This document shows, in pieces, positions 613 through 63,774 of a DNA stretch of 64,000 nucleotides (position 1 is its first letter; each line of letters starts with the position of its first letter). Under the pieces are notes generated by a model. The model searched no databases. It was not told where the DNA came from and was given only the letters and a program-made list of their open reading frames with translations. The translations under genes and the position numbers were made by a program. This DNA comes from an uncultured Candidatus Saccharibacteria bacterium (GTDB lineage: Bacteria > Patescibacteriota > Minisyncoccia > UBA6257 > XYB1-36-10): assembly GCA_964362215.1 (NCBI GenBank), contig CAYIDJ010000001.1:13151-77150 (forward strand), in the 5' to 3' direction.

Positions 613-810
613 AAAGTCCGACCAAAGGAGAAATCTCAATACTGTATTCTTATTATTAGAATAAAAGTTATCGTAAGATAACTACCTCACTATCCAACCT
701 CTCCCCTAAATGGAGTGAGGTCTAATCAAAGGAAACTTATTAACATACTCGAGCGCATAAAGGCGTGGTACAAATTAATATCTTAGTTATATGGCAAATA
801 ACACTGTTTA

Positions 811-918
811 GAAGCCAAGCTTTCTGTTTGCTGGACCGCGCGGAGCTCGACTGGAGCGAGTCAGAGGAATTTTTTAGCCAAAAAATATCCGTGTCCAGCC
901 AACAGGAAGGTTGGCTTC
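811..918. repeat. Family-1 structured repeat, copy 1 of 8, nested inside a degenerate Family-2-like element spanning ~730-960
   Basis: gaagccaagctttctgtttgctggACCGCGCGGAGCTCGACTGGAGCGAGTCAGAGGAATTTTTTAGCCAAAAAATATCCGTGTCcagccaacaggaaggttggcttc. The flanks (catactcgagcgc ... ggtagcgagagtatg) match the Family-2 ends. Confidence 0.75.
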
Positions 919-995
919 TTCTCGCCGCAAATAAACGTTGGTAGCGAGAGTATGTTGGCGAGGTGCCATTAAGGCCTCACTATACTTAATACTTC

Positions 996-6184: not shown

Positions 6185-6250
6185 CACTATTTCTAAATAA
6201 GATCCGCCTGCCTTTAGGCAGGCTACATTCACATCCAACTTCTTCCCTCA

Positions 6251-6446
6251 AGATGCGGATGTTGATTAATTAGTGTCTTAATAAATATGCCTTAAGCGCG
6301 CATCCGAGCCCGAGCGGGCATGGTTCCGCCGAAGAGGCGGAGAGCGAGGGCGAGGCGTAGTGAAAACTCTCGCTGGGAGTTTGAACGGTAGCGAAAGGCA
6401 TATTTATTAAGACACGCCTACCTCGCATATTCCATTCATCCGCATC
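6251..6446. repeat. Family-2 structured element, copy 1 (conserved core AAGCGCGCATCCGAGCCCGAGCGGGCA...GAGCGAGGGCGAGGCGTAG...ACGGTAGCGA inside covarying outer stems)
   Basis: Outer stem gtgtcttaataaatatgcct/aggcatatttattaagacac (6273-6415), plus a further outer pair agatgcggatg/catccgcatct. Homologous copies lie at 57997 and 58914. Confidence 0.75.
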
Positions 6447-14830: not shown

Positions 14831-16492
14831 TTGTTCTCTAATCTGATAAACCTCTTTCGTCATCTCTCACACCCTGAACGGCGTTCCGTCTACATTACCG
14901 CTTTCGTCGCTCTCTTAGCCGTCACCGGCCTGGTATTCATCGGTTTTAATAACATAACTCGCGCCGTTCCCGTCCCCGGCGGCACCTGGACAGAAGGCAT
15001 TATCGGCCAGCCGGTTTTTATCAACCCGGTCATCTCCGGCAGCAACGATGCCGACCGCGACCTCATTGCCCTAACCTTCTGCTCTCTCTCTGATATCGCC
15101 GAAAAAATAGAACCCACCCGCGACCTCCAGGTCTGGCAGGTACGCCTCAAGGAAAACGCTCTCTGGCACGATGGTAAGCGTCTGACCAGCGACGATGTTA
15201 TCTTCACTATCGCCCGCATCCAGGACCCGGAGTACAAATCGCCGCAGAGCGCTACCTGGCAGGGAGTTACCGCTTCTCGCATCAGCGAACGCGAACTGTC
15301 TCTTTCTCTGGTCGCTCCCCTCTCTTTCTTCCCTGATAATCTGGAAAAACTTTATCTCATTCCCAAACATATCTTCGCCGATATTCCCTTAGCAAACTGG
15401 CGCCTCTCCGACTACAATCTTCAGCCCGTCGGCTGCGGCCCCTACCAATTTGACTCGTTTAAAAAACGGCCTGACGGCTTTATTACCCAGTTGAGCCTCA
15501 AAGCTAATCCCGACTATGTTGGCAACGCGCCTTTCATCTCTAACTTTGACATCGCTTTTTATACCGACCCCGAACAAGCCATTGAGGACTTTATCTTCGC
15601 TAAAATAGACGGCCTCGGCGGGCTTTCCAAAAAACAGTTGGATCAAATCCGCCGCAGTCACAATCTCTTCGCCCTCCCCACCCCCCGCTACTACTCCGTC
15701 TTTATTAACCAAAACGCCCACCCTGCTCTCAAAGACAAAAATGTACGTCTTGCCTTGGACAGCGCCATTGACCGTAACCTTCTCATCCGCGCCACCCTTG
15801 GCGGCTATGCCGAACCGGTTACCGGTCCCGTCACGCCCAACTTTCTGGAAGAAGTGGATCTGCCCCAGCCAACTGTCTCCCTCGATCCCCTGACTGATGC
15901 CGCTGATATTCTGGAGCAATCCGGCTGGAAACTGAACGAGAGCGGCACTCGCTCCAAAAAAATTAGTAAAAACGACGTTACCCTTGAGTTTGATTTGATT
16001 GTCCCGGAAATTGAGCCTCTCCTAAGCGCCGCCGAGTTTATCAAAAAAACCTGGGGTGAGATCGGCGTCAAAATCAACACCGTTATTCTCTCTCCGGAAA
16101 CAATTAACGGTAACGTTATCCGCGGCCGTAACTTCTCCCTCCTTCTTTTCGGTAATATCATTGGCCGTAGCCCGGACCTTTTCTCTTTCTGGCACTCCTC
16201 TCAAACCGACTACCCCGGCCTTAACCTCGCCCAGTACCAAAACCGCGCCGCCGACAAACTGATCGAATCTATCCGCCGCGGTGAAGACCCAGAGGAAGAA
16301 ACCAGCGACCTCGTCTCTCTTTACACCTTAATCCAACGTGACTTGCCGGCTGTCTTCCTTTATTCTCCGCAATATCTCTATCTTACCTCCTCCGACCTCA
16401 AGGGCTTCTCCGAAGATCTCATTGTCACCCCCGCCGACCGCTTCCGTAGCGTCTCTTCTTGGTATCTCAAAACCGCCCGCCAACTGAAATAA
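14831..16492 (+). CDS. ABC transporter substrate-binding protein, family 5 (peptide/nickel type)
   Basis: 553 aa, N-terminal anchor helix, SBP_bac_5-like conserved segments (WHDGKRLTSDDVIFT, ANPDYVG, KLIESIRRGEDPEE). No permease or ATPase genes adjacent. Confidence 0.65.
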   Translation: MFSNLINLFRHLSHPERRSVYITAFVALLAVTGLVFIGFNNITRAVPVPGGTWTEGIIGQPVFINPVISGSNDADRDLIALTFCSLSDIAEKIEPTRDLQVWQVRLKENALWHDGKRLTSDDVIFTIARIQDPEYKSPQSATWQGVTASRISERELSLSLVAPLSFFPDNLEKLYLIPKHIFADIPLANWRLSDYNLQPVGCGPYQFDSFKKRPDGFITQLSLKANPDYVGNAPFISNFDIAFYTDPEQAIEDFIFAKIDGLGGLSKKQLDQIRRSHNLFALPTPRYYSVFINQNAHPALKDKNVRLALDSAIDRNLLIRATLGGYAEPVTGPVTPNFLEEVDLPQPTVSLDPLTDAADILEQSGWKLNESGTRSKKISKNDVTLEFDLIVPEIEPLLSAAEFIKKTWGEIGVKINTVILSPETINGNVIRGRNFSLLLFGNIIGRSPDLFSFWHSSQTDYPGLNLAQYQNRAADKLIESIRRGEDPEEETSDLVSLYTLIQRDLPAVFLYSPQYLYLTSSDLKGFSEDLIVTPADRFRSVSSWYLKTARQLK

Positions 16493-19074: not shown

Positions 19075-19208
19075 TAAACAACTACCCTCCCAGAGGCGAA
19101 TACTATAGTCAACTAAACAAACTTAAAAGTAAAAAATCTTTTTGCTCAAAACCATAAGGCGCCTCGCCAACAAAATAAACATCGCAACCAACTAAACAGG
19201 ATGGAAAA

Positions 19209-19306
19209 GAAAAAACTTCCTTTCGAGACCGCGCGGAGCACGACGGTGCGAGTCAGAGTGATTTTTTAGCAAAAAAATACACGTGTCTCGAAAGGAAGTT
19301 TTTTCT
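19209..19306. repeat. Family-1 structured repeat, copy 2 (between convergent holA and rpsT)
   Basis: aaaaaacttcctttcgagACCGCGCGGAGCACGACGGTGCGAGTCAGAGTGATTTTTTAGCAAAAAAATACACGTGTCtcgaaaggaagtttttt. Confidence 0.8.
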
Positions 19307-19358
19307 GAAAAATACAAAAAGGTGAATATTCTACGTCCACCTATTATTCATCAAATAC

Positions 19359-19619
19359 CTAACTCAAAACTTTAAGCTGCCTCGCCAACCGCGACTTCAT
19401 CCTCGCCGCCCGCCCCTTCTTCAAAACATCTCCCTTTACCGCCTTATCCACCGCTTTATAAATCAAAGCTAACTTTCCCGCTGCCGCCCCCGCGTCTTTG
19501 GCTAACGTTTTTTTATAATCTTTCACGGCCTCCTTCACTGCCTGCTTGCGTGCTTCATTTCCCTTCTGCCGCCTTTTACTCTGCCGCAGTGCTTTCGCCG
19601 CCGATTTAATGTTTGGCAT
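19359..19619 (-). CDS. rpsT: 30S ribosomal protein S20
   Basis: MPNIKSAAKALRQSKRRQ..., 86 aa, basic and helical. Confidence 0.9.
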   Translation of the reverse strand: MPNIKSAAKALRQSKRRQKGNEARKQAVKEAVKDYKKTLAKDAGAAAGKLALIYKAVDKAVKGDVLKKGRAARMKSRLARQLKVLS

Positions 19620-20533: not shown

Positions 20534-20676
20534 TAAAACGACTTCTCCGCAAGACCGCGCGCCCGCCCGACCAGAACAACTAGTCGTTCGGGCGGGGAGT
20601 CCGCCAACTGGCGGACGAGTCAGAGTGATTTTTCAGCGGAAAAATACACGTGTCTTGCGGAGAAGTCGTTTTTATC
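20534..20676. repeat. Family-1 structured repeat, copy 3 (variant with a 50-nt insertion replacing helix P2)
   Basis: ...caagACCGCGCG[cccgcccgaccagaacaactagtcgttcgggcggggagtccgccaactggcgga]CGAGTCAGAGTGATTTTTCAGCGGAAAAATACACGTGTCttgc... The inserted segment itself forms two hairpins. Confidence 0.75.
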
Positions 20677-31393: not shown

Positions 31394-31777
31394 TGTGGAG
31401 ATGATGGGAATTGAACCCACGTCCGATCTGGAAATTCAGTAACTTCTACAGGCGTATACTGGCTATTTTTTGCGTCGGCAAGTTTAAGCCAGTCGTAATG
31501 CTTGCCGCCGCCATCCCTGTGCCTTTTCCTCTTTGCTTCCGGTCTGCCGAAGCGAGAGTAAGTCCGCTTTTATAACACCGCTCTCCGTCCCCGCGAACAT
31601 AGAGACAGAACGATGGTCCCGAATATATATCGGAACGGTCAGTTCAGCTTAAGCGTAAGCTAAAGCCGGCTGCCTGTTGAATACATTGGCATGTATTATT
31701 TTTGACGCGTTTACGGCCGCCGTCCCACCGGCCTGCTATTACTGATTTTCTTCAACCGTCGATGCCTTGCATCCCCT
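31394..31777 (-). ncRNA. ssrA: tmRNA (SsrA)
   Basis: 5' GGGGATGCAAGGCATCGACGG.... 3' tRNA-Ala-like end GTGGGTTCAATTCCCATCATCTCCA with a G3:U70 pair and A73. The internal frame GCC AAT GTA TTC AAC AGG CAG CCG GCT TTA GCT TAC GCT TAA gives tag ANVFNRQPALAYA. smpB is adjacent. Confidence 0.8.
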
Positions 31778-31880
31778 ACCTTATTCCCAACTTCTTACCC
31801 AAGAAGATGAAAATCTGTTTTGGAAATTATTTTCGAGGCTTATCAGAACTTAGACGCTCCAATATCTCTATCCTTATCAG

Positions 31881-32031
31881 CCATCCCCATAATGTCTTGA
31901 GGGGCGCGTCGGAGCTCGCCGCGCTTGGTCCAAACACTCAAGATAATTGAGTACTTGGGCGGCGGGCGAGACTGAGAGCGGACGGCCGCTGGAGCCGTCC
32001 GACTCGTCCCCGATGGATATTATGGGGATGG
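31881..32031. repeat. Family-4 MITE-like element (151 nt, 13-bp terminal inverted repeats ccatccccataat/attatggggatgg), copy A
   Basis: Near-identical to 39657-39807. The interior has hairpins actcaa-gataa-ttgagt and ggacggc-cgctggag-ccgtcc. Confidence 0.8.
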
Positions 32032-32083
32032 CTGTTTCAGTAAATTGCGGATCAACCGCCAAAATAACTTCCAAAACATTTAT

Positions 32084-32591: not shown

Positions 32592-35500
32592 ATGGCTACC
32601 ACCGACAACCGCCCTCTTCCTGAACGAGAAAAAGAAATCCTCGCCTTCTGGGAGGATAAAAAAATTTTTACCAAATCCCTCCAACAAACTGCCAAGGGTA
32701 AACCTTTTGTTTTTTATGAAGGCCCCCCTTCCGCCAACGGCCGCCCCGGCCTCCACCACGTTCTTGCTCGCGCTTTCAAAGACATCATCTGCCGCTATCA
32801 GACCATGTGCGGCCGCTATGTCGCCCGCCGCGCCGGCTGGGACACCCACGGCCTCCCCGTGGAAGTCCAGGTGGAAAAAGAGTTGGGACTGAAAAGTAAG
32901 CGCGATATTGAAAATATCGTCCCCGGCGACCGCCGCGCCAGCATCATCACCTTCAACCAGAAATGCCAAGAATCCGTCTGGCGCTACCGCGACCTCTGGG
33001 AAAAGTTAACTTCTCGTATGGGCTATTGGTTAGATATGGAAAATCCTTATGTTACTTATGAACCGGAATATATCGAATCTCTCTGGTGGATTATATCCCA
33101 AGTTAACCGCCAAGGCCTTCTTTACCAAGGCCATAAAATTCTTCATTGGTGTCCCCGTTGCGGCACCGGCCTCTCCTCTCACGAAATCGCTCAGGGTTAC
33201 CAAACCGTCACCGACACCTCTGTTTTCGTAAAATTCAAACTCGCCCCTCATCAAAAAATCGGTAAAATAACCGTCCCCGCCAATACCTATATTCTATCCT
33301 GGACCACCACCCCTTGGACCCTCCCCGGCAACGTCGCTTTAGCGGTCAATAAAAATATAAAATACGTTCTCGTTAAAATTGGCTCCGAAAACTTTATCGC
33401 TTCGGCGGACTTTCTCTTCCAACTCAAAGAAAAAACAATTTCTGTATCCAATAAACAAATCAAAGGCCAGAATCTGATCGGCCTTAAATACGAGCCGCTC
33501 TTTAACATTCCCAAACTTAAATCCCCCGCCTCCCATCAAATTTATCACGCCGATTTTGTTACTACCTCCGAAGGCGCCGGCATCGTCCACACCGCCGTTA
33601 TGTATGGCGAAGACGACTACGAACTGGGCCAAAAATATAATCTTCCCGCCATCCACACCGTGGATGACGCCGGCCGCTTTCTTAAATTCGTCTCCGCCGG
33701 CCTCGCCGGCCTTGCCGTCAAAGATTCCGCCACCACCAAGAAAATCATCTCTTATCTGGAAAATAAAAACTTCCTCCTTAAAACCGCTCCCTACGAACAC
33801 GAATACCCTTTCTGCTGGCGCTGCGACACGCCCGTCATCTACTACGCCCGCTCTTCCTGGTTTATCAAGATGTCCGCCCTCAAAGACAAACTCATTAAAA
33901 ATAACTCGTCCATCAGCTGGGTTCCCTCTCATCTTAAAAATGGTCGCTTCGGTGAATGGTTAAGTAACGTCAAGGACTGGGCTGTTTCCCGCGAACGCTA
34001 CTGGGCCACTCCTTTACCCATCTGGCTCTGCTCCTCTTGTAATCACCTAGAAGTTATCGGCAGTTTGTCCGAATTAGATAAACTCACTGTCTCCTCCAAT
34101 AACCGCTTTTTCATTATGCGCCACGGTCAAGCTCTCTCTAACGTCAAAAACTTCTTGAGCTCTTACCCGGAAAAACGCCTCAACCCCCTCACTCCCGCCG
34201 GCGCTAAAGAAATGCTGTCCGCCGCCGCCCGCCTTAAATCAAAAAAGATTGATCTTATTGTTTCCTCCGACCTCCCTCGCGCCCACGCTACTGCCAAACT
34301 CATCGCCTCTGCTCTCGGCATTAAAAAAGTCGCTATTGACAAGCGCCTGCGCGAGCGCGACTTCGGCCAAGATAACGGCCTGCCGATTAAAAACGCTGAC
34401 TCCTCGCAACACGAACCGCTATCCAGTATCCGCGCCCGCGTAATAAAAGCGCTTTTTGACACCGACCGCCAGTATCAAAATAAAAACATTCTTTTTATCA
34501 GTCACGGTTCTCCTCTGCTTACTCTTCGCCTCGCCGCCGAAAACACTGACAATACTCTCCCCGTCAATGAACCTCTTTTGCCTACCGGCGGCTGGCAGGA
34601 GCTTAAACTGAAACGTCTTCCCCGAAACGACGATGGCGCCGTAGACCTTCACCGCCCTTATATTGATGAAGTTAAGCTCTCCTGCCCCTCCTGCCGCCAT
34701 TCCCTGACTCGCGTACCCGATCTCCTTGATGTTTGGTTTGACTCCGGCGCCATGCCTTTTGCCGCCCCCCGCTTCCCTTTCGCCGTCAAAAAACTTGCCG
34801 CCACCGACTATCCCGCCGACTATATCTCCGAAGCCGTTGACCAGACCCGCGGCTGGTTCTATACCCTTCTTGCCGTCTCTACTCTCTTAGGTTTCAAAGC
34901 TCCTTACCGCCACGTCATCTCCTTGGGACACCTCAACGATAAACACGGCCAGAAAATGTCCAAATCTCGCGGCAATATAGTTGACGCGGAAGAAATGATG
35001 GAACGCTACGGCGCCGATATTGTCCGCTGGCACTTTTACACCATTAACCAACCCGGCGACACCAAAAACTTTGACGAATCCGACCTCAAGAAAGTTACTA
35101 ATCGGGTTTTTAATATTCTTCAAAACTCTCTTGTCTTCTACCAAACATACCGCGCCTCGCCGAAACTTCATGCACAACCTAAGTATAGTCAAAGGACAAA
35201 AAACATTCTGGATCTCTGGCTCGCCGCCCGCCTCACTGCCACCAAACTGGAGATAACTTCTCGATTAGACAAATACGACGTTTATCACGCCGCCTTAAGT
35301 ATTGAAAAATTAATTGACGATCTTTCTCGCTGGTATATCCGCCGCTCCCGTTCCCGCTTTCAACAACCCACTTCTACCTCCGACCACGTTGCCGCCTCTG
35401 TCACTCTCCGCTCCGCCCTTATGGAAATATCCGCCCTTCTCGCTCCCTTCACGCCCTTCTTCGCTGAGTGGCTCTATAAAGAACTGGGTGGCTCTAAAGA

Positions 35501-36071
35501 ATCAATTCATCTAGAGTCGTGGCCAAAAACCTCCCCCAAAATAGACCCCGCTCTTCTTTCCCAAATGGAAACAGCTCGCCAACTCTCAAGTTTAGGACTA
35601 TCCGAACGCTCATCCTTAAATATCAAAGTCCGTCAGCCCCTCGCCGAAATGAAAGTGTCGCTAGACACCCTAAGCGCAGTCAAAGGGTCTCATCTGCCAA
35701 AAGAAATAGTCGCCCTCGTCGCCGATGAGGTTAATGTTAAAAAAATATCTCTCGGTAATCGCCTCGCCAAAGACAAAGAAGTTGAACTTGACGCCGTCAT
35801 CACTCCCGCTCTTCGCGAGGAAGGCAACTTGCGCGAACTAATCCGCGCCGTTCAGTCCCTCCGCGCCGCCGCCGGCTTAAAACCCGGAGAACCAGTTTCT
35901 CTTTTCTTCCAATCCTCCCCTGTCGCTTCCGCCTTTATCATTAAACACACCGCCGCCCTCACTAAGGCCTGCTCTCTTAAAACCGTTTCCGCCAACTCCG
36001 TCTCTTCTCCTAAATCAAGCCGTGCGCTCTCCTTAGACGACCTCGGCCCTATCTCTCTCGCGATAAAATAA
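32592..36071 (+). CDS. ileS: Isoleucyl-tRNA synthetase carrying an inserted histidine-phosphatase (PGAM-like) domain
   Basis: HIGH-region PSANGRPGLHHV, GWDTHGLPVE, CP1 editing domain, KMSKS (QKMSKSRGN). ~180 extra residues (aa ~500-682) contain RHGQ...SHGSPL histidine-phosphatase motifs between the conserved IGSLSEL and DLHRPY segments. Confidence 0.85.
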   Translation: MATTDNRPLPEREKEILAFWEDKKIFTKSLQQTAKGKPFVFYEGPPSANGRPGLHHVLARAFKDIICRYQTMCGRYVARRAGWDTHGLPVEVQVEKELGLKSKRDIENIVPGDRRASIITFNQKCQESVWRYRDLWEKLTSRMGYWLDMENPYVTYEPEYIESLWWIISQVNRQGLLYQGHKILHWCPRCGTGLSSHEIAQGYQTVTDTSVFVKFKLAPHQKIGKITVPANTYILSWTTTPWTLPGNVALAVNKNIKYVLVKIGSENFIASADFLFQLKEKTISVSNKQIKGQNLIGLKYEPLFNIPKLKSPASHQIYHADFVTTSEGAGIVHTAVMYGEDDYELGQKYNLPAIHTVDDAGRFLKFVSAGLAGLAVKDSATTKKIISYLENKNFLLKTAPYEHEYPFCWRCDTPVIYYARSSWFIKMSALKDKLIKNNSSISWVPSHLKNGRFGEWLSNVKDWAVSRERYWATPLPIWLCSSCNHLEVIGSLSELDKLTVSSNNRFFIMRHGQALSNVKNFLSSYPEKRLNPLTPAGAKEMLSAAARLKSKKIDLIVSSDLPRAHATAKLIASALGIKKVAIDKRLRERDFGQDNGLPIKNADSSQHEPLSSIRARVIKALFDTDRQYQNKNILFISHGSPLLTLRLAAENTDNTLPVNEPLLPTGGWQELKLKRLPRNDDGAVDLHRPYIDEVKLSCPSCRHSLTRVPDLLDVWFDSGAMPFAAPRFPFAVKKLAATDYPADYISEAVDQTRGWFYTLLAVSTLLGFKAPYRHVISLGHLNDKHGQKMSKSRGNIVDAEEMMERYGADIVRWHFYTINQPGDTKNFDESDLKKVTNRVFNILQNSLVFYQTYRASPKLHAQPKYSQRTKNILDLWLAARLTATKLEITSRLDKYDVYHAALSIEKLIDDLSRWYIRRSRSRFQQPTSTSDHVAASVTLRSALMEISALLAPFTPFFAEWLYKELGGSKESIHLESWPKTSPKIDPALLSQMETARQLSSLGLSERSSLNIKVRQPLAEMKVSLDTLSAVKGSHLPKEIVALVADEVNVKKISLGNRLAKDKEVELDAVITPALREEGNLRELIRAVQSLRAAAGLKPGEPVSLFFQSSPVASAFIIKHTAALTKACSLKTVSANSVSSPKSSRALSLDDLGPISLAIK

Positions 36072-39549: not shown

Positions 39550-39656
39550 CTATTCCCTCCCATCAACCACCTCACCTAGAAAAATGTAGGGAAATCAAAT
39601 ATAGGCAACTCATAAATACACTTTCGCGCAGTTCTGAATCATAATTTTTTTAGCAA

Positions 39657-39807
39657 CCATCCCCATAATGTCTTGAGGGGCGCGTCGGAGCTCGCCGCGC
39701 TTGGTCCAAACACTCAAGATAATTGAGTACTTGGGCGGCGGGCGAGACTGAGAGCGGACGGCCGCTGGAGCCGTCCGACTCGTCCCCGATGGACATTACG
39801 GAGATGG
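39657..39807. repeat. Family-4 MITE-like element, copy B
   Basis: Identical to copy A except for 3 substitutions in the right terminal inverted repeat. Located between the histidine kinase gene and polA. Confidence 0.8.
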
Positions 39808-39836
39808 TTGCGTGTTTAGTAACAACACTAATATAC

Positions 39837-43423: not shown

Positions 43424-43495
43424 TTCCTAAAATAATTTAATTTTGGTTGGTTAACCTAATCTTCCTCGCTAAAAAATTTAACATCTACACTGTAA

Positions 43496-43592
43496 GAAAA
43501 AGCTTCCTTCCGAGACCGCACGGAGCACGACGGTGCGAGTCAGAGTGATTTTTCAGCAGAAAAATACACGTGTCTCGGAAGGAAGCTTTTTC
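43496..43592. repeat. Family-1 structured repeat, copy 4 (3' of ruvB)
   Basis: gaaaaagcttccttccgagACCGCACGGAGCACGACGGTGCGAGTCAGAGTGATTTTTCAGCAGAAAAATACACGTGTCtcggaaggaagctttttc. Confidence 0.8.
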
Positions 43593-43634
43593 TGAAAGAC
43601 AAAAGACACAAGAAGACAAACTGTACATCTAATA

Positions 43635-44684: not shown

Positions 44685-44736
44685 ACCAAAATCCTCTTAC
44701 CCCCACACCATTGACAAACACGAATAAATAATATAA

Positions 44737-44836
44737 AGAAAAAGCTTTCTTTCGAGACCGCGCGGAGCTCGACTGGAGCGAGTCAGAGGGATTTTTTAGC
44801 AAAAAAATACCCGTGTCTCGGAAGGAAGCTTTTTCT
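44737..44836. repeat. Family-1 structured repeat, copy 5 (preceded by a promoter-like TTGACAAACAC...TATAAA at 44711-44736)
   Basis: gaaaaagctttctttcgagACCGCGCGGAGCTCGACTGGAGCGAGTCAGAGGGATTTTTTAGCAAAAAAATACCCGTGTCtcggaaggaagctttttc. Confidence 0.8.
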
Positions 44837-44926
44837 GAATATAAGCGCTATCCATTGACTCATTATCAATACTATGCTATAATAAGGCAGTTTTGGACAA
44901 ATTACCCTATCTCGCCTCTCTTTGAT

Positions 44927-45078
44927 TAAAAAACTTGGATCTGTGGGCAGGAGCTAAACTACGCTTTAGGAAGGGTTGGTTCACGCTAATCCTCACCTCT
45001 GTTTAGTTCTAATTCTTCTTTTTAAGAAGTTACACACCACCCCGGCTTCGCCGGGCCGCCCACAGATCCAAGTTTTTT
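44927..45078. repeat. 152-nt element bounded by a perfect 21-bp inverted repeat (aaaaaacttggatctgtgggc / gcccacagatccaagtttttt)
   Basis: Single copy in this window. The interior holds a hairpin ccccggcttcgccgggg. No ORF. Confidence 0.6.
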
Positions 45079-45304
45079 AGTTCCTTCTCCCCAACAACCC
45101 CCCACTAGTCGAGAGATACCGACACTAAAATATAAAAATAAACTAAGAAAGACGAGTTTTTTATTTACTAAACCGCATACCTGCTAGTTTCTAACGAGAA
45201 ACCCTTTTAACTTAAACTTGCATGAGTAGTGTTTAGCTAATATATTTAAGCGCGCATAGATGTGTTGTCAGTCAATATATTAATTACACACTAAACAGCA
45301 TCGT

Positions 45305-45414
45305 GGAAGCCAAGCTTTCTGTTTGCTGGACCGCGCGGAGCTCGACTGGAGCGAGTCAGAGGGATTTTTTAGCAAAAAAATACCCGTGTCCGGCAAATAG
45401 AAAGATTGGCTTCC
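45305..45414. repeat. Family-1 structured repeat, copy 6 (outer stem identical to copy 1; part of a duplicated composite with a Family-2-like fragment at ~45250-45300)
   Basis: gaagccaagctttctgtttgctggACCGCGCGGAGCTCGACTGGAGCGAGTCAGAGGGATTTTTTAGCAAAAAAATACCCGTGTCcggcaaatagaaagattggcttcc. Confidence 0.8.
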
Positions 45415-45469
45415 TACTACCGCAAACAGAAAATATGTTGGTAAACCGCCAATCTACCATTTTAAATTT

Positions 45470-47176
45470 TCAAAATTCTATCTCTCCTGTCACTCTCTCC
45501 ACTTCCTCCAAACTCGTCACGCCCGCCAGCACCTTTAACATCCCGTCCTCTTGCATCGTCACCATTCCCTGTTTCCTCGCCATCTCCCTTATATCTAATA
45601 CCGCGTGCTTCTCGGCGATTATTCTTTCCACCTCATCCGTTATCCGGAACAACTCAAAAACCCCCACTCTTCCCTTATATCCCGTCCCGCCACACCGCTC
45701 GCACTCTTTCCTTTGTCTCGGCGTCTCGTAAATCACGCTCGGTACCTTCACACCGTCTTCCTTCCTTACCCTCTCCGGCAGTTTTTCTATAAACCTCTCC
45801 CATCTTTCCTTAAGCGACGGAGTTACCGTCTGTTTCTCTCGGCACTTCTCGCATAACTTCCGCACCAGCCGCTGGGCAATCACCAAATCCAGCGCCGCGG
45901 AAATCAGCGACGCCTCCGCTTTTAAATCCACTAGCCGCGGAATCGCTCCCGCCGCGTCATTGGTGTGCAGCGTGGAAAATACCAAATGTCCCGTCAGCGA
46001 CGCGTTCACCGCTATCCCCGCTGTCTCCTGGTCTCTTATCTCCCCCACCAGTATCACGTCCGGGTCTTGCCGCATTATTGACTTCAAGCCGCTGGCGAAC
46101 GTGTATCCCGCCTCCGCGTCCACCTGTGTCTGTTCAATCCCCTCCAGGTGGTATTCCACCGGGTCTTCAATCGTGATAATCTTCACCTCCGCCGTGGCCA
46201 CCTTTTTCAAAAACGCATAGAGAGTCGTCGTCTTTCCGCTTCCCGTCGGCCCGGTCACCAGCATCATCCCATTGGGTTTTTTAAGCTCCGCCTCCATCGT
46301 TTTTTGGTCGGAGAGCCGGAATCCCAACTGCGTCACGTTAAGCGATATCGTCTCTGGGTCAAGTAACCTCATCACAATTACCTCCCCGTACTCCGCCGGC
46401 GCCATCGCCACCCTCACCTCCACATTGTCCTGCCCTATCGCAATGGTAAACCGGCCGTCCTGCGTCTCGTCGGTGATGTTTAACTTGAGTCCCGCCAACA
46501 GCTTTATCCGCGACGCCACCTGCCTGTAAAAATCCTTCGGCAAAGGCTTGCTCTCCCCTCCCAATACTTGGTGCAACACTCCGTCCAGACGCATCCTGAC
46601 CTCAACTCTCGTCTTCGCCGGCTCAAAGTGTATATCGGACGCTCCCAGCGCCAGCGCTCCTCCGAAAACCGCCTCCAAAAACTCCGTTACCGGCACCTTA
46701 TTGAAATTAAACTCTTCCAACCGCCCCTTAAGTTTCCCCATAGTCGTCATCTCTTTCTTTAAAGTCTGCAGTTTCTCCACGTTAAGCTCCACTCGCCCGA
46801 TTATCTCCCCCGCCGCCCCCGTCACATATTTATAATAACTCCAGGCATGCCTCAATCCGGCTATTGATGTCACAAAAATATCCGGCTTGTATCCCAGTTT
46901 CTCCAACCGAGCCAGCTCTTCCGCCACTCCCGCCGCCCCCAAATCAAAAACCGCCACAATCAGGTCTTTGTTGACTAAATTTACGGCGGCCAATTTTAAC
47001 TCTTTTGCCCTCTCTTCGGGCACTAATCGCAACGCCTCTATTTCCACCGGCGTTGTCACAATATTCAAATACGGTCTCCTTTGTTTCGCCGCTCGCCGCT
47101 CCGCGTCGCGCTCCTCCGCCCGTTGATTAAAACGAATCAGTTTTTCCTGAAGCGCTGTGGAGTTATTTTGTAACAT
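45470..47176 (-). CDS. Type IV pilus / type II secretion assembly ATPase (PilB/GspE family)
   Basis: Walker A LVTGPTGSGKTTTLYA, Asp/His boxes, tetracysteine C-terminus (CEKCREK...CERCGGTG). Confidence 0.85.
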   Translation of the reverse strand: MLQNNSTALQEKLIRFNQRAEERDAERRAAKQRRPYLNIVTTPVEIEALRLVPEERAKELKLAAVNLVNKDLIVAVFDLGAAGVAEELARLEKLGYKPDIFVTSIAGLRHAWSYYKYVTGAAGEIIGRVELNVEKLQTLKKEMTTMGKLKGRLEEFNFNKVPVTEFLEAVFGGALALGASDIHFEPAKTRVEVRMRLDGVLHQVLGGESKPLPKDFYRQVASRIKLLAGLKLNITDETQDGRFTIAIGQDNVEVRVAMAPAEYGEVIVMRLLDPETISLNVTQLGFRLSDQKTMEAELKKPNGMMLVTGPTGSGKTTTLYAFLKKVATAEVKIITIEDPVEYHLEGIEQTQVDAEAGYTFASGLKSIMRQDPDVILVGEIRDQETAGIAVNASLTGHLVFSTLHTNDAAGAIPRLVDLKAEASLISAALDLVIAQRLVRKLCEKCREKQTVTPSLKERWERFIEKLPERVRKEDGVKVPSVIYETPRQRKECERCGGTGYKGRVGVFELFRITDEVERIIAEKHAVLDIREMARKQGMVTMQEDGMLKVLAGVTSLEEVERVTGEIEF

Positions 47177-50279: not shown

Positions 50280-50440
50280 GACTCCTGCTCTTTTATGCTT
50301 TGTTGTTATAAACAAAAGCCTGCCAAAATTTTTGTGCGAGTAAAAACTTAGACGGGCTACCTTAAGTCTAACCTCTACCTCCCAATAGAGGTTGTAGTCA
50401 TCATTAAAAAAGAAAATCAAATATGTAAACCGAGGCGAGG

Positions 50441-50534
50441 GCGGCTTTTTCCATAAGACCGCGCGGAGTCCGACGGGACGAGTCAGAGGGATTTTTTAGC
50501 CAGAAAATACCCGTGTCTTATGGAAAAAGCCGCC
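50441..50534. repeat. Family-1 structured repeat, copy 7 (between convergent ruvC and the class A PBP)
   Basis: gcggctttttccataagACCGCGCGGAGTCCGACGGGACGAGTCAGAGGGATTTTTTAGCCAGAAAATACCCGTGTCttatggaaaaagccgcc. Confidence 0.8.
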
Positions 50535-50566
50535 CGAAGCCGCGACCTTCTTTTATCTAACACAAA

Positions 50567-53432: not shown

Positions 53433-54536
53433 TCACGACTTCACCGGCATTAGAATATAAATATAAGAATCATCACTTGAATCCTTTATTGCCGTCGGTT
53501 TGTCTTTAAAATTAACTTTCAATTTTATCTCTCCCCCTTTTACCGACCTAATACCGGATAAAAGATAGTGCCAGTTAAAAACAACTTTTCCCCCTCCTCC
53601 CGCCACCTTTGCCGGCACTAAATATTTATTTTCCCCAACCCCCTGACTCATTGATGTAATCTCTATAAAATTCTTATTCACGGCCAGAGTCACATCCGAT
53701 ATTTTACTGGATAAAACACTGACTACTTTAAGCGCCGTCACCATCTCCTCTTTTAAAGCTACCACCTCTGTATCGTAAGCGCTTGGAATTATTTGTTTAT
53801 AATCAGGAAAACTACCGTCAATTAAATGAGATACTATCATCACCCCCTCTCCCGAAAACATAATTTGATTTGAATCAATATAAATCTTAACCTCTTCTCC
53901 TTCCGGTAAAACCCTAATTAATTCGTTTACTGTTTTAAGCGGCGCAATTAAAGACCAACCCTCATCGCCCTTCAGAGAAAATTCGTCTTTATAAATAATT
54001 CTTTCCGCTAAACGAAAACTGTCTGTTCCCGCTATTCTTAATTCATTATTTTCTGCCGATATAAAAATTCCGTTTATCTCTGGCCTTAATTCGGAAAACG
54101 TCGTCGCTGACATCACTTGCGCTATTATTTCTTTTAATCTCGCCGCTGGTAAAATTAAAACTGGATCTTTATTGGTAATATTTGGAATAATCGGAAAATC
54201 ATCAACGGCTAAAGTTTGAATTTGTGCCTCATAATTATCCGTTTGAATGTTAAATTTATCTTTTTCTGTGCTTAAATTAACCACCTCACTCGTTAGATTT
54301 GAAATTATTGAGCTAAAAACACCAGCTGGTACTGTTACCGCTCCCGACTCAATAATCTTTCCCGGACATATCTGTGTCACTCCTATCTCTAAATTTGTCG
54401 CCGATAGTTTTATCTCTCCATTATCAACTTTAATTAATAAATTCTTAAGTATTGGTAAATTAGAAGATTCATTGCAAATTTTTGCCACAATTTCCACCAC
54501 TCTTTTTAAATTATTTTTTACAAATACTAATTTCAT
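53433..54536 (-). CDS. dnaN: DNA polymerase III beta sliding clamp
   Basis: MKLVFVKNNLKRVVEIVAKI..., 367 aa with three-domain clamp organisation, immediately downstream of dnaA. Confidence 0.85.
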   Translation of the reverse strand: MKLVFVKNNLKRVVEIVAKICNESSNLPILKNLLIKVDNGEIKLSATNLEIGVTQICPGKIIESGAVTVPAGVFSSIISNLTSEVVNLSTEKDKFNIQTDNYEAQIQTLAVDDFPIIPNITNKDPVLILPAARLKEIIAQVMSATTFSELRPEINGIFISAENNELRIAGTDSFRLAERIIYKDEFSLKGDEGWSLIAPLKTVNELIRVLPEGEEVKIYIDSNQIMFSGEGVMIVSHLIDGSFPDYKQIIPSAYDTEVVALKEEMVTALKVVSVLSSKISDVTLAVNKNFIEITSMSQGVGENKYLVPAKVAGGGGKVVFNWHYLLSGIRSVKGGEIKLKVNFKDKPTAIKDSSDDSYIYILMPVKS

Positions 54537-54667: not shown

Positions 54668-56029
54668 TTAACTCTTGTATATTAATTCCTTTATTAAATT
54701 AACTTTTTGGTTTAAATTACTATTTTTTAATATTTCCTTGTTTATTTTTTCACAGGCATGGATAGCGGTTGTGTGGTCTCTCTTCCCCACCTTATCCCCA
54801 ATAAAAGGATAAGACATACTTAAAACATTACGGAGTAAATACATTATTATCTGCCTTGGTTCCACTATCTCTTTTTTTCTTGATTTTCCTACTAAATCAC
54901 TTATTGGGACCTCATAAAAATCAGCTACTGCCTTAATAATCTTATTTGGATTAACATTCTTATTACTTTGATTGTTTTTACTTATTATATCTTCTACCAC
55001 TTCCTCCGTAATTTGTATATTTTTACTTTCTTTTACGAATATTATTTTATTTAATATCCCCTCTATTTCTCTTATGTTTTTGGTTAATTTATTAGCTATT
55101 AAACTCACCACCGGCTCGTCCAGGGAATGGTGGCATTCCTGCAATTTTGTCTTTATTATCGCCATTCTCATCTCATAGTCGGGATAACTGATATCAACCG
55201 TCATTCCCCCCTCAAACCGGCTTCTTAAGCGCTCCTGTAACGTTGGTAATTCACTGGGTGGACGATCGGAAGAAATTATAATCTGCTTGTTAATTGAGTG
55301 TAAAGCGTTAAAAGTGTGAAAAAATTCTTCCTCCGTCTTTTCTTTACCTCCAATAAACTGTATATCGTCTATAATTAAAGTATCCACGTTCCGGTAGCGG
55401 CTCTTTATATCCTCCATCCGCTTATTTTTTATAGCCCAAACCACGTCGCTAACGAACCTTTCTGAAGTCACATACTTGACGGAAACCACATCTTTATACA
55501 TAGCCATAATCTCATTGCCGATTGACTGTATTAAATGGGTTTTTCCCAACCCCACCCCTCCGTAAATAAACAGCGGATTGTACTTTACTCCCACATTTTT
55601 TACTACCGCCTGCGCGGCGGCAAAAGCCAGCTCATTAGCCGATCCCACCACAAAGTTTTTGAATGTATATTTAGGATTAAGATTGGTGTTCGGGTTTATT
55701 TTAAACTCCGGAAACATCATTTGCGCGGAAGGCATATAAGCCGTTTTAGCTTTATGCGACAATGTTAACGCCTTAAATATCCCCCCCGACACCACAAACT
55801 CCACTTTTCTGGCGGAAGAATCCAAATTGCGCAGTACGCTTAAAATATTTTTATTATATTTATTTTCCACCCACTCCTTTGAAAAATTATTTGGCAGTGC
55901 TATCACAAAAGTGCCGGCATCGTCCTTATCTACTAATTTACTGTTCTTAAGCCAGGTATGAAAATTAGCGTGAGTCAGCTGAACTTCCATTTCCCCTAAT
56001 ACCGATTCCCAAATTTTTTCCAACTCCAT
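54668..56029 (-). CDS. dnaA: Chromosomal replication initiator protein DnaA
   Basis: AAA+ Walker A GGVGLGKTHL, sensor motifs, and the C-terminal DNA-binding domain (DHTTAIHACEKI). Confidence 0.9.
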   Translation of the reverse strand: MELEKIWESVLGEMEVQLTHANFHTWLKNSKLVDKDDAGTFVIALPNNFSKEWVENKYNKNILSVLRNLDSSARKVEFVVSGGIFKALTLSHKAKTAYMPSAQMMFPEFKINPNTNLNPKYTFKNFVVGSANELAFAAAQAVVKNVGVKYNPLFIYGGVGLGKTHLIQSIGNEIMAMYKDVVSVKYVTSERFVSDVVWAIKNKRMEDIKSRYRNVDTLIIDDIQFIGGKEKTEEEFFHTFNALHSINKQIIISSDRPPSELPTLQERLRSRFEGGMTVDISYPDYEMRMAIIKTKLQECHHSLDEPVVSLIANKLTKNIREIEGILNKIIFVKESKNIQITEEVVEDIISKNNQSNKNVNPNKIIKAVADFYEVPISDLVGKSRKKEIVEPRQIIMYLLRNVLSMSYPFIGDKVGKRDHTTAIHACEKINKEILKNSNLNQKVNLIKELIYKS

Positions 56030-56741: not shown

Positions 56742-57494
56742 ATGACTTTTTTATTTAACGAAATTCTCTATCGTCCCATCCTCAACGCTTTAGTGTTGGT
56801 TTATAACCATCTTTCCTTTGGTAGTTGGGGACTGGCGGTTATTATCATTACCGTCATCATCCGGATTATTCTCTTTCCTTTCTTCCATAAAGCCAGCCGC
56901 AGCCAGGCGATTATGCAGAAAATTCAACCCCAAATAAAAGACATTACTGATCGCCATCAAAACAACAAAGAAAAGCAAATGAGAGAGATAATGGCTCTCT
57001 ATCAAAAACATCGCGTCAACCCTTTTTCCAGCTTTGGCCTTCTCTTTATTCAACTGCCCGTGCTGATTGCTCTTTATCTTGTTTTTTTACGCGGTCTAAC
57101 TCCCGACAACCTTTCTCTTCTCTACTCCTTCGTCTCCGCGCCTCTTCATGTTGACTTCACCTTTCTATGGTTGATAAATCTAAAAGAAAGTAGTATTATA
57201 ATTGTCGTTGTCGCCGCCGCTCTCCAGTACCTTCAGGCCCGCCTTAGTCTGCCGCGCCGGCAACCCGCGGCCGCCGTTTCTTCCGCCGAACGCCTAGGGC
57301 GTCAAATGTCTTTTATCGGCCCGGTTGTTACTCTCCTCGTTTTAATCAATCTCCCCTCGGTTATCGGTATTTACTGGATAACAACTTCCGCTTTCTCTAT
57401 CTTCCAGCAGCTTATTATCAATCGCTCTCTATCCGACTCTAACTACCAAGAACATGGACCAGACGGAAACAAAAACAATCAAACCAATCCTTGA
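56742..57494 (+). CDS. yidC: Membrane protein insertase YidC (short Oxa1-like form)
   Basis: Five-transmembrane core with conserved RILLFPF...MQKIQPQIKDI...MALYQKHRVNPFSS segments. Confidence 0.85.
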   Translation: MTFLFNEILYRPILNALVLVYNHLSFGSWGLAVIIITVIIRIILFPFFHKASRSQAIMQKIQPQIKDITDRHQNNKEKQMREIMALYQKHRVNPFSSFGLLFIQLPVLIALYLVFLRGLTPDNLSLLYSFVSAPLHVDFTFLWLINLKESSIIIVVVAAALQYLQARLSLPRRQPAAAVSSAERLGRQMSFIGPVVTLLVLINLPSVIGIYWITTSAFSIFQQLIINRSLSDSNYQEHGPDGNKNNQTNP

Positions 57495-57903: not shown

Positions 57904-57996
57904 AAATAAAAATCCGCCCCCTAGGCGGATTACTTTTTCATCCAACTTCCATTTCATCCAACTTCCATCTTCTAATTATAATCAGATCATATAAAT

Positions 57997-58147
57997 AGCT
58001 CGCTAATATACTCAAGCGCGCATCCGAGCCCGAGCGGGCACGGTTCCCCTCTCTTTCCTGCTCTGTAAGAGAGGGGGGAGCGAGGGCGAGGCGTAGTCCA
58101 TTCCCTCGCTGGGGGAATGGACGGTAGCGAGAGTATATTGGCAAGCT
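57997..58147. repeat. Family-2 structured element, copy 2 (between convergent jag and clpP)
   Basis: agctcgctaatatactcAAGCGCGCATCCGAGCCCGAGCGGGCAcggttcccctctc...gagaggggGGAGCGAGGGCGAGGCGTAGtccattccctcgctgggggaatggACGGTAGCGAgagtatattggcaagct. Confidence 0.8.
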
Positions 58148-58156
58148 ATTTCCTCT

Positions 58157-58747: not shown

Positions 58748-58913
58748 ATTCTTTATAATAAACGATTATTCCACTACCGTCAAATACATAAACCACAATT
58801 CATCTATAAATAAAAGTTACCTTGAGGTAACTACCTTAAGTCCAACTCCATCCCCCTATGGTTGGCAACTTAAAAAGCATCTCACTGATATACGATTACA
58901 ATATTAATTAGAT

Positions 58914-59118
58914 AACTCACTAATATATTCGAGCGCGCATCCGAGGTCGAGCGGGCACGGTCTGAGCGCTTAAATTTCTCAATTTGAGCGCTCGGGAGCG
59001 AGACCGAGGCGTAGTCCATTCTCTCGTCCCGATTTTTGTTCACAAAAATCGAGGATTCTCGATAGCGAAGCTATCGGAACTAGGAGAATGGACGGTAGCG
59101 AAAATACATTAGTGAGTC
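58914..59118. repeat. Family-2 structured element, copy 3 (tig-clpP intergenic), with expanded internal hairpins
   Basis: aactcactaatatattcGAGCGCGCATCCGAGGTCGAGCGGGCAcggtctgagcgc...gagcgctcGGGAGCGAGACCGAGGCGTAGtccattctctcg...ggagaatggACGGTAGCGAaaatacattagtgagt. GGTC/GACC here covaries with GCCC/GGGC in copies 1 and 2. Confidence 0.8.
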
Positions 59119-59157
59119 ATCCGCACTTACAACCTACTATACTATCAAATCATCCAC

Positions 59158-62405: not shown

Positions 62406-63758
62406 TTATTCGTCATTTTTTTCCTCCGGCTTTACGGACTTTTCGTCTTCATCTTTTTGCTCTATTTCCTTTTCCTCCCCTTCCGCTACTGTTTCTGGTT
62501 CTTCTGTAGTCGGCTCCGCTGCTGTATCAGAATTTTCTTGAGCTGGAGTTTTATTTGCATTCTCTCCCTCTTCCGTTACTACCCCTCCCTCCACCTGTTC
62601 CTCCGGTTTGAGTATTGATCTTACGTCAATCTTAAATCCCGTCAATTTCGCCGCTAACCTCACGTTCTGTCCGCCGCGTCCGATGGCCAGCGACAACTGG
62701 TCTTCCGGCACGAATACTTTTACTTCCCGCCTTTCTCCCATTTCTGTTCCTGTTACCTTTGCCGGCGACAAGGAGTTGGCCACATACGCCTCCGGGTCTT
62801 CCGACCACTCAATTATGTCAATTTTCTCTTGTCCCACCTCATTATTTACCGCCATCACCCTCGTGCCTCTCTGCCCCACAAAACTTCCCACCGCGTCCAC
62901 TCCCGGGTCGTTGGAAGCCACCGCTATCTTAGTTCTACTTCCCGCCTCTCTGGCGATTCCTTTTATTTCCACTGTTCCATCCGTTATCTCCGGCACCTCG
63001 CTTTCAAATAATTTGCTGATGAATTTAGGATGGTTGCGCGAAAGCACGATACTCGGTCCCTTAATCTCGTCTTGTACGGCCGTTACTAAAAACTTCAACC
63101 TCTCCCCTACTCGGTAGTGTTCGCCCGGAATTGATTCGTGCCTAAACATCACTCCCTCTGTTCGTCCCAGATCCGCGTATACATTCCCTCTTTCAAATCG
63201 TCTCACTACTCCCGAAACCACTCTTCCCTCGCGGTCTTTAAACTCTTCCATTACCGACACCCTTTCCACCTCCCTCAATCTCTGTAGTATGTTTTGCTTG
63301 GCGGTCTGGGCGGCAATCCGTCCAAACTCCGCCTCCGGCGCCGGCAATTCAAAACTCATCTCCTCTCCCACCGCCGCCTCCGGCTTTATTTTTTTTGCTT
63401 CCTCAATCAAAATATGCCGGTCTGGATTATAGCGCGGCCTCTCGTCCCCTTCCTCTTTATCTTCTTCTTTCGGTGCCCCTTCTTTTTCTGCTCCTACTCC
63501 CGCTTCCGCTTCCGCCCGCATCTCCTCCTCACTCATTATTTTCACCGTTGTCTCATCCTCCACTGTCTTTGTTTGATAAAACTCCGTTTCGCCGGTATTC
63601 AAATCAAGACGTGCCTTTATCGCCATTCCTTTATGTCCGTACTCTCGGCGGTAAGCGGCCGCTATGGACGTCTCCACAATATCCAGCACTTTCTCGCTGT
63701 CTATTTTTTTCTCCTCCGCTATCTGGTCAATTACCTTCGCTAATTCTTTTAAATTCAT
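62406..63758 (-). CDS. nusA: Transcription termination/antitermination factor NusA
   Basis: NusA N-terminal domain, S1 and two KH domains, acidic C-terminal tail. Start trimmed to Met 63758 because the longer ORF reads through the Family-3 hairpin. Confidence 0.85.
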   Translation of the reverse strand: MNLKELAKVIDQIAEEKKIDSEKVLDIVETSIAAAYRREYGHKGMAIKARLDLNTGETEFYQTKTVEDETTVKIMSEEEMRAEAEAGVGAEKEGAPKEEDKEEGDERPRYNPDRHILIEEAKKIKPEAAVGEEMSFELPAPEAEFGRIAAQTAKQNILQRLREVERVSVMEEFKDREGRVVSGVVRRFERGNVYADLGRTEGVMFRHESIPGEHYRVGERLKFLVTAVQDEIKGPSIVLSRNHPKFISKLFESEVPEITDGTVEIKGIAREAGSRTKIAVASNDPGVDAVGSFVGQRGTRVMAVNNEVGQEKIDIIEWSEDPEAYVANSLSPAKVTGTEMGERREVKVFVPEDQLSLAIGRGGQNVRLAAKLTGFKIDVRSILKPEEQVEGGVVTEEGENANKTPAQENSDTAAEPTTEEPETVAEGEEKEIEQKDEDEKSVKPEEKNDE

Positions 63759-63774
63759 ACGTTTGTTTTTTTGT

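Follow-up and report, generated by a model that had tools for sequence, protein, structure and literature searches.

A Family 1 element nested in Family 2 ends: a dispersed composite among strand-locked structured repeats of a Patescibacteria chromosome

Correia/NEMIS, ERIC, pneumococcal BOX and RUP elements are intergenic repeats of ~100–200 nt that can form long hairpins and can affect termination or mRNA stability; BOX modules and ERIC copies with internal insertions are modular or nested variants. Classical miniature inverted-repeat transposable elements (MITEs) are found in either orientation, end in conserved terminal inverted repeats and are flanked by target-site duplications. In Proteobacteria, REP/BIME/REPIN palindromes are mobilised by RAYT (TnpA-REP, HUH/Y1) (PMC3733652, PMC3116915, PMC6006769), and IS200/IS605 elements have a replication-tied orientation and ends that are recognised as folded single-stranded DNA (PMC6006769). 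Here we describe a composite repeat, present twice in a 64,000-nt stretch of contig CAYIDJ010000001.1 (positions 13,151 to 77,150; hereafter the window), in which one structured repeat, Family 1 (F1), is enclosed by the ends of another, Family 2 (F2). F1, F2, F3, F4 and the small REP-like hairpin are working names, and L-numbers denote related metagenome contigs; those of the sister species are Ga0210057 contigs.

The nearest analogues of these families are the REP/BIME/REPIN and MITE-like repeats. They are a variant of that general kind and we do not file them as members, because they differ in size and tag and show no conserved terminal repeats, target duplication or alternating orientation. 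They resemble REP, BIME and REPIN sequences in being high-copy extragenic palindromes, mostly just downstream of coding regions and between tandem or convergent genes (PMC3733652, PMC3116915, PMC6006769), and also in being mosaic, non-autonomous and fold-dependent, in lacking target duplications and in the GTAG tetranucleotides carried by F2. However, they are multi-helix elements of about 110–230 nt, whereas REP sequences are hairpins of 20–40 nt with an unpaired GTAG or CGTC at the foot, and the tag occurs here only on an internal F2 sub-hairpin, F1 having none. BIME units alternate in orientation, whereas all copies here face one way; covarying stems, invariant cores, a Patescibacterium host and the lack of a RAYT gene among 30 window proteins are further differences. 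With MITE-like repeats they share size, intergenic location, folding into long hairpins and modular or nested variants. Unlike in classical MITEs, the closing stem has almost no sequence in common from one F1 or F2 copy to the next and covaries, conservation being limited to the stem-proximal part of one F2 subtype; orientation is fixed and no target-site duplication is seen. Integron attC sites have R''-L''...L'-R' boxes with a GTTRRRY core and bound gene cassettes; the elements here hold no such core and lie between housekeeping genes (ruvB, polA, clpP, tig).

Both composites (composite 1, 736–962; composite 2, 45231–45446) are intergenic and consist of an F1 hairpin element enclosed by an outer stem of 16–17 bp, the inner ends of which bear the F2 end motifs: RAGCGC(GC)AT in both and GGTAGCGA in composite 1 only. 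On the plus strand, composite 1 begins with the 5′ arm of the F2-type outer stem, CTTATTAACATACTC (736–750), which is related to the F2 arm motif CTCGCYAATATACTC and pairs with the 3′ arm, GAGTATGTTGGCGAG (948–962), in 16 pairs, three of them G-U. Between the arms follow the F2 5′ closing motif GAGCGCAT (751–758; RAGCGCGCAT in F2 itself), an AT-rich spacer of ~51 nt (759–809) that is conserved in L026, L046 and L031, F1 copy 1 (810–919; covariation, and 107 bits with the F1 covariance model, R1), a tail, and the F2 3′ closing motif GGTAGCGA (940–947). In the spacer, the F2 5′ interior survives as a faint, degenerate remnant (GGCGTGGTAC), and there is a second 3′-arm-like segment (AGTTATATGGCAA); this fits an internally deleted F2. 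F1 copy 1 is of class A (stem GAAGCC...CTGGAC; classes B and C are also seen in the window) and has a 26-bp outer stem, P1 (811–836 with 893–918), around the conserved three-way-junction core GACCGCGCGGAG-[P2]-CGAGUCAGAG-[P3]-CGUGUC. In composite 2, also on the plus strand, the 5′ arm GTTTAGCTAATATATTT (45231–45247) runs into AAGCGCGCAT (45248–45257), a spacer (45258–45304), F1 copy 6, again of class A (45305–45414; 111 bits), a tail and an eroded 3′ arm, AAATATGTTGGTAAAC (45431–45446). In the alignment, GGTAGCGA has been lost from composite 2 through a 13-nt gap, the order of parts being otherwise that of composite 1.

In the predicted folds of both composites the outer arms close around the F1 hairpin (z of approximately -5.1 against shuffles). 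Outer stems of composites and F2 copies pair best with their own partner arm, with the exception of the composite 2 shell. This shell is eroded (17 pairs, 4 G-U; -12.7 kcal/mol), non-cognate arms do equally well, and the spacer offers its 5′ arm an alternative local pairing (45227–45246 with 45274–45293; -15.5 kcal/mol). Open reading frames (ORFs) at 765–944 and 45303–45731 overlap the composites; we dismissed coding, as 1-base differences in P2-loop length and compensatory stem changes fit a folded element.

Flanks of each F1 copy were locally aligned to the F2 end consensus, with p values taken from shuffles. The flanks of the copy at 811 matched with p=0.003 (5′) and p<0.0002 (3′), and those of the copy at 45306 with p<0.0002 (5′) and p=0.027 (3′). 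No such match was seen for the remaining five complete F1 copies in the window (p 0.07–0.99), so that two of seven complete copies have F2-like flanks. Apart from the occurrence at 940, the window holds the exact 14-mer GGTAGCGAGAGTAT only once, in the F2 copy at 58123, and AAGCGCGCAT is confined to F2 copies and 45248. The preliminary description had reported an F1 element nested in a degenerate F2-type element, while naming beforehand the doubt that the flank similarity might be insignificant. The match of the composite ends to F2 is beyond chance, and the nesting it proposed is borne out by the outer stem, RAGCGC(GC)AT and GGTAGCGA that F2 and composite have in common; the same arrangement is indeed present in the second region it pointed to, minus GGTAGCGA.

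Alternatively, the F2-like ends could be general regulatory signals that flank both families (a -10-like box, terminator arms) and do not derive from F2. The arm motif CTCGCYAATATACTC does include a -10-like TAATAT, and solitary 5′ arms lie upstream of F1 in L029, L033 and L035. However, the motif is not enriched outside the elements (allowing up to 3 mismatches, the window has 8 matches where 4 are expected; 10 of 100 shuffles are as good), the complementarity of the arms extends well past their conserved part and covaries, F2 and the composites also have in common the inner motifs AGCGC(GC)AT and GGTAGCGA, neither of which resembles a promoter, and no consistent -35 element accompanies the box. 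We therefore consider this explanation quite improbable. IS200/IS605-derived elements have a fixed tetra- or pentanucleotide target next to their left end; here the sequence ...ATACTC directly precedes different cargos in F2, the composites, L033 and L035, and is itself part of a paired stem.

When related metagenome contigs were included, at least 10 of 13 class-A F1 copies had an F2-like 5′ or 3′ end, compared with 1 of 15 other F1 copies. The full composites can be aligned over their whole length and form two sub-types, each represented in at least two genomes: GGTAGCGA is present in type I (window 730, L026, L046, L031) and absent from type II (window 45240, L020, L045, L028). Their gene contexts, among housekeeping genes, are unrelated (gatB/miaA, efp/truB, ?/recG, dnaJ/?, MscS/GNAT, pduO, pilB). 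Two sub-types across genomes in unrelated contexts indicate that the nesting predates the split of these genomes and that the chimera was copied as a unit. Eroded copies are represented by the solitary 5′ arms of L029, L033 and L035, and the 3′ arm and GGTAGCGA are missing in many copies. By alignment, these comparisons show an older, dispersed sub-family of single origin with later erosion, not a local accident. The claim that the composite had been duplicated holds in that the arrangement was copied as a unit, but this was not a recent event in this genome.

The association with one stem class also bears on the proposal that F1 and F2 act as target and mobile partner, which we did not find supported: a shell tied to class-A F1 fits one ancestral nesting. 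A related possibility is that F1 inserted independently into two F2 copies, F2 being its preferred target. The yidC-clpP site lends itself to this reading, since the window has an intact F2 there and L035 has an F2 5′ arm followed by a class-A F1, as if F1 had landed in F2; conversion from an existing composite explains the L035 case equally well. Moreover, shelled F1 copies have one stem class and homologous spacer and tail, and copies outside class A are essentially unshelled. Two independent insertions are thus improbable. The general statement that one family had inserted into, or recombined with, the other is right as to the embedding, but nesting is more general than it implied, as F3 too is found inside a long outer stem.

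Comparison of composite 1 with its closest relative, L026, and with the 45240 composite gave a patchy result. The 5′ shell and spacer are identical at 63/64 positions to L026 and at 36/64 to the 45240 composite, the F1 3′ half at 51/52 and 43/52, and the tail and 3′ arm at 34/38 and 19/38. The order is reversed in the F1 5′ half (811–867, plus strand), which is 57/57 identical to 45306–45362 and 50/57 to L026. From this tract, alignment shows that copies exchange sequence by gene conversion. The F1 outer stems of the two composites had been described as identical; the 5′ arms are exactly so, but the 3′ arms mismatch at 5 of 26 positions, and the reported identity is explained by the 57-nt gene-conversion tract.

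F1 consists of a 20–26 bp closing stem and an invariant three-way-junction core, GAC-CGCGCGGAG-[P2 hairpin]-CGAGUCAGAG-[P3, a U/A-rich hairpin with one bulged A]-CGUGUC; some copies add a hairpin after CGCGCG. In the window, the covariance model detects seven complete copies; an eighth is truncated at 64000, and all are on the plus strand. The model detects 25 more in related contigs. Six window copies and 20 from metagenome contigs, all distinct, were aligned; in this alignment of 26, 97.8% of the cells at 40 pairs are paired, and both sides have changed in 24 of the 40 pairs. No shuffle was as good, and sliding the 3′ partners by 1–3 columns lowered pairing to 34–56%. Unpaired positions are 77% purine (A+G), with almost no U. 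Inspection of the F1 core by eye revealed no K-turn, C/D-box, hammerhead, hairpin-ribozyme or loop-E motif. A search for the core pattern in species-representative genomes returned 17 single matches in unrelated GC-rich taxa, none of which fits the F1 model, and we rejected these as chance; human-gut matches of a metagenome scan (28-nt span) proved to be an unrelated conserved sequence. Neither F1 nor F2 was found in viral contigs, so there is no sign of a phage origin.

Twister and hammerhead ribozymes cluster with associated RNAs, and the F1 core could by analogy be a small self-cleaving ribozyme, joined in the composite to a second RNA module. Like hammerhead and other small three-way-junction RNAs, F1 combines variable helices with short invariant junction strands (8, 8 and 2 nt) and is present in many copies. 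In contrast to hammerheads, its junction reads CGCGCGGA / GAGUCAGA / GU, the core motifs CUGANGA and GAAA are absent, no Rfam ribozyme matches even at E<=10, and there is no sign of transcription. A ribozyme is accordingly very improbable.

F2 elements measure about 133–217 nt and have a closing stem with the closing motifs RAGCGCGCAU and CGGUAGCGA. Their interior holds a covarying long-range helix (CC/GG, GU/AC, GC/GC), a variable hairpin and a GUAG-tagged hairpin, and compensatory changes occur in 17 of 33 pairs, long-range helices included. In five of six copies GTAG stands directly 5′ of the sub-hairpin (GCGTAG-UCCAUUCC...GGAAUGGA); a second GTAG lies within GGTAGCGA. Alignment and folding place the window copies, all on the plus strand, at 6273–6415 (perfect 21-bp outer stem), 57993–58151 (arms nearest to the composite shell) and 58911–59121 (between tig and clpP, with an extra internal insertion). 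The second of these is 98% identical to the F2 of L020 over 159 nt (window 57990–58148), with unrelated flanks, and in the stem the two differ solely by two compensatory pair changes. Therefore the whole stem is part of the moving unit and is under selection to pair.

The elements also move as whole units and turn over at orthologous positions. The L026 composite is 93% identical to 735–965, against ~80% for shared genes. Five element-bearing intergenic sites of the sister species have an orthologous site in the window, and all five are occupied there, each by a different element. Downstream of ruvB, the window has a class-B F1 and the sister species an arm with a class-A F1; upstream of ruvB, a class-B F1 is matched by an F2; at yidC-clpP, an F2 by an F2 5′ arm leading directly into a class-A F1 (L035); at tmRNA-ileS, a shell with F3 by an arm with a class-A F1; and at udg-clpB, an F1 with an extra hairpin by an F1 with another stem. 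On this comparison, occupants must be replaced frequently by recombination, or insertion must recur at favoured sites. In 24 of 28 F1 copies the longest direct repeat in the flanks was not above chance and no common motif was found, giving no evidence of target-site duplication. F1 is missing from ~58 kb of three more distant relatives (L059, L061/62 and L063–65; RuvB 72–78% identical), in which gene order and F4 are kept; their ruvB-F4 spacer lacks the 110-nt F1 found at 44732–44841.

In the ruvB-downstream spacer of L061 (~1985–2050), a plain 25-bp hairpin is topped by GAGAC...GTCTA, like the F1 stem-core junction, without an F1 core; this could be an empty or core-deleted site. It suggested that cores insert into pre-existing terminator hairpins, which we rejected as a general rule, given that orthologous sites do not have related stems and that the L020/window F2 pair shows the stem moving as a whole with its element.

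All 21 repeats of the window lie on the plus strand: eight F1, three F2, two composite shells, two F3, one F4 and five REP-like hairpins. Across contigs, the C-rich strand carries F1 in all 28 cases, and F2 and F3 share the F1 orientation in every contig that holds both. Repeat orientation is independent of the direction of neighbouring genes. The GC skew of the window is approximately -0.30 throughout the 64 kb, irrespective of gene direction, whereas the elements are G-rich on the plus strand (skew +0.03 to +0.22). G-U pairs outnumber A-C combinations in F1 by 29:9 when cells are counted and by ~13:7 as independent events, a moderate argument for the folded strand. These data show that the families are strand-locked and under strong structural constraint.

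Fourteen long-stem elements and five small hairpins are packed into the 64 kb, about 30% of the intergenic regions being occupied. Nine of 12 assessable window elements end 6–41 nt past the stop codon of a minus-strand gene, and at least 16 of 28 F1 copies end 4–78 nt from a convergent stop. No consensus promoter was found ahead of any F1, F2 or composite copy, although sigma-70-type promoters (10–12/12) were found for protein genes and F4. From the missing promoters and the position after minus-strand genes, most copies would be transcribed, if at all, as the reverse complement in 3′ untranslated regions. Class-B F1 stems are bordered by an A-run and a U-run; a simple terminator scanner calls none of the elements, as their loops are far above 8 nt.

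We interpret the composite, with a probability of roughly 0.55, as belonging to a chimeric sub-family of mosaic repeats that are non-autonomous and structure-dependent; the clade-specific set of which this sub-family is part comprises F1, F2, F3 and the small REP-like hairpin. On this interpretation the sub-family arose by one nesting, then spread, eroded and underwent conversion, and is moved in trans and tolerated or co-opted. Each family consists of a closing stem of ~20 bp that drifts by compensatory change around a nearly invariant, purine-rich structured core. One ancestral event may have put a class-A F1 hairpin with a little flank inside an F2 of the 57992/58909 type; the central F2 domain would then have been lost, and the F2 closing stem retained together with the motifs RAGCGC(GC)AU and GGUAGCGA. 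Comparison shows that the chimera was subsequently copied in one piece into numerous intergenic sites across several related genomes and split into two sub-types, which are now eroding (45231–45446 among them), with gene conversion between copies. As selfish or nearly neutral DNA, the elements would be moved in trans by way of an intermediate that depends on the fold and is probably single-stranded; candidate routes are an HUH/Y1-type enzyme or annealing of single-stranded DNA. Their long stems past stop codons could act as bidirectional terminators or 3′-end hairpins, which may be why they are tolerated or co-opted.

IS200/IS605 and derived palindrome-associated elements offer a parallel for such movement in their strand-specific orientation and the absence of target duplication (PMC6006769). 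The parallel is limited: F1 orientation is uniform with respect to GC skew in 28/28 cases, but dnaA coincides with no flip of that skew; neither TnpA nor TnpB is encoded nearby, and the cores are far more elaborate than subterminal hairpins. Several further points weigh against our interpretation. The best-folding, purine-rich strand is the C-rich strand, which by the usual skew convention is apparently not the lagging-strand template expected for IS200/IS605. Among 30 window proteins scanned there is no transposase, HUH enzyme, recombinase, reverse transcriptase or RAYT, and no clean empty site was found between close strains. The multi-helix cores with invariant junction nucleotides exceed the hairpins that known transposases need and resemble functional RNAs, conserved occupancy of intergenic sites could mean that the elements are needed there, and the order of events, whether by insertion or by recombination, is not readable from the sequences.

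Some of these points lead to the principal alternative, in which F1, F2 and the composite are paralogous gene families of structured non-coding RNA (ncRNA). Different apical domains would then be mounted on a common scaffold, made of the F2 closing stem with its RAGCGCGCAU/GGUAGCGA internal loop and serving, for instance, in protein binding or processing; the composite would be a functional two-domain RNA. Strong covariation in several helices, invariant purine-rich junction strands, the scarcity of unpaired U and the G-richness of all elements on the C-rich strand agree with this, as do the conserved occupancy of orthologous sites and the recurrence of a shell around F3. F4, a long-stem element on the same strand with a conserved near-consensus promoter, indicates that plus-strand small RNA (sRNA) genes of such build exist here. 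F1, F2 and the composites, however, have no promoter-like site upstream where consensus promoters are easily found elsewhere, and at 7 or more of 12 window sites the upstream neighbour is on the minus strand, so that mainly the reverse complement would be transcribed. In addition, the shells are visibly decaying, the distribution is narrow (the families are missing from the relatives at 72–78% RuvB identity), and orientation tracks strand asymmetry, not neighbouring genes. We hold the ncRNA explanation to be a serious possibility, yet an unlikely one.

A bolder proposal, which we put forward as doubtful, departs from the REP/MITE analogy: F1, F2 and F3 would form a new mobile system of strand-locked structured-RNA (or single-stranded DNA) modules peculiar to ultra-small Patescibacteria, with junction cores that are catalytic or bound by a dedicated protein and a generic closing stem that serves as an exchangeable 'socket' for swaps at fixed sites, the composite being caught in the act. 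Patescibacteria genomes are tiny and streamlined, yet ~3% of this 64-kb stretch consists of at least five elaborate strand-locked repeat families, with no Rfam match for those scanned. The composite indicates that the families recombine, nest and convert one another, and intergenic sites stay occupied while the occupant changes. Should the cores be functional RNAs or substrates of an undescribed single-stranded-DNA enzyme, they would constitute a new element class in a poorly understood phylum. If not, they would be a clean natural example of structured selfish repeat evolution, with compensatory stems, frozen cores and gene conversion, and useful markers for strain typing and for inferring the replication strand in the clade.

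Rfam at gathering thresholds detected only the transfer-messenger RNA (tmRNA) and six tRNAs in the whole window. At E<=10 there was only noise over 600–1100 (composite 1 and its F1 copy), two F2 copies, one F3 copy and F4. Our literature search on repeats, structured RNAs and ribozymes of Patescibacteria found nothing relevant. The composite belongs to an undescribed set of strand-locked structured repeats, although it spreads, decays and undergoes gene conversion in the manner familiar from REP/MITE-like elements.

The remaining F1 copies of the window, all on the plus strand and identified with the covariance model except where stated, lie at 19203–19311 (class B; no shell in the flank test), 20535–20672 (extra hairpin inserted after CGCGCG), 43490–43598 (class B, 37 nt from the ruvB stop codon), 44732–44841 (class B, the copy missing from the corresponding spacer of the three more distant relatives), 50433–50541 (class C stem) and 63956–64000 (cut off by the window end; repeat search). 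The copy at 44732–44841 lies between 8-nt direct repeats, CCATTGAC, at 44707–44714 and 44850–44857, the right one being the -35 box of the F4 promoter. This may be an insertion footprint; it is not significant after multiple testing.

F3 is present in two copies, 96% identical, in the 31816–32078 region and at 39653–39811. The former (31878–32034) is enclosed in a long outer stem at 31816–32078 with 36-nt arms. A 12/12 promoter at 32233–32204 (minus strand) would put this F3 shell, in antisense, into the tmRNA leader.

The F4 region (44855–45079, plus strand) contains a 153-nt element with a perfect 22-bp closing stem (44927–44948 with 45058–45079) and, upstream, a near-consensus promoter, TTGACT-17-TGcTATAAT. 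Every relative examined (L059, L061/62 and L063–65) retains this promoter and stem between pilB and ruvB. By its conservation, F4 looks like a single-copy sRNA gene antisense to its neighbours.

The small REP-like hairpin, GTCATYCCNGCGRARGCNGGRATCCAG, has a covarying stem and five plus-strand copies, at 216, 16596, 24616, 42824 and 63775. The last of these is inside the first codons of the nusA ORF (62406–63806, minus strand), where the start codon may be misplaced or the repeat translated. A pyrimidine-rich motif, CTACCTTATGTCCAACTTCTCCCC, and its variants occur at many loci, among them 688–720, 6233–6255, 31777–31800, 50375–50410 and 57935–57975, usually after a small hairpin and upstream of structured repeats; one copy abuts the tmRNA 5′ end on the opposite strand. 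L059, which has no F1, carries two terminator-like hairpins of 23–29 bp (15891–15965 and 19343–19406) with unrelated stems and a common 18-nt loop, CAGGGCTARTCRCCA. A variable long stem with a conserved apical module may thus be a general design in this lineage.

The window is a piece of bacterial chromosome encoding RuvB, PilB, PolA, ClpB, IleRS, a class-A penicillin-binding protein, H+-PPase, RNase Y, RNase J, IF3, ClpP, trigger factor, DnaA/DnaN homologues and NusA, with one tmRNA and six tRNAs as RNA genes. The closest named RuvB relatives are Candidatus Liptonbacteria, Parcubacteria and Paceibacterota, and the host is a Parcubacteria/Patescibacteria bacterium. Near-identical and ~80%-identical DNA comes from 0.1-µm-filtered Hainich groundwater and two Joint Genome Institute (JGI) metagenomes. 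Genes dnaA (54668–56029) and dnaN (53433–54536) are on the minus strand and yidC (56742–57494) is on the plus strand; the skew is near -0.30 on both sides of the divergent dnaA/yidC junction and does not flip, though origins normally flip skew. L059 behaves as the window does, and L045 has a possible skew switch near 2–3 kb. The IleRS (32592–36071, plus strand; 1159 aa) contains a histidine-phosphatase domain (His_Phos_1) inserted at residues 507–656, within its catalytic domain.

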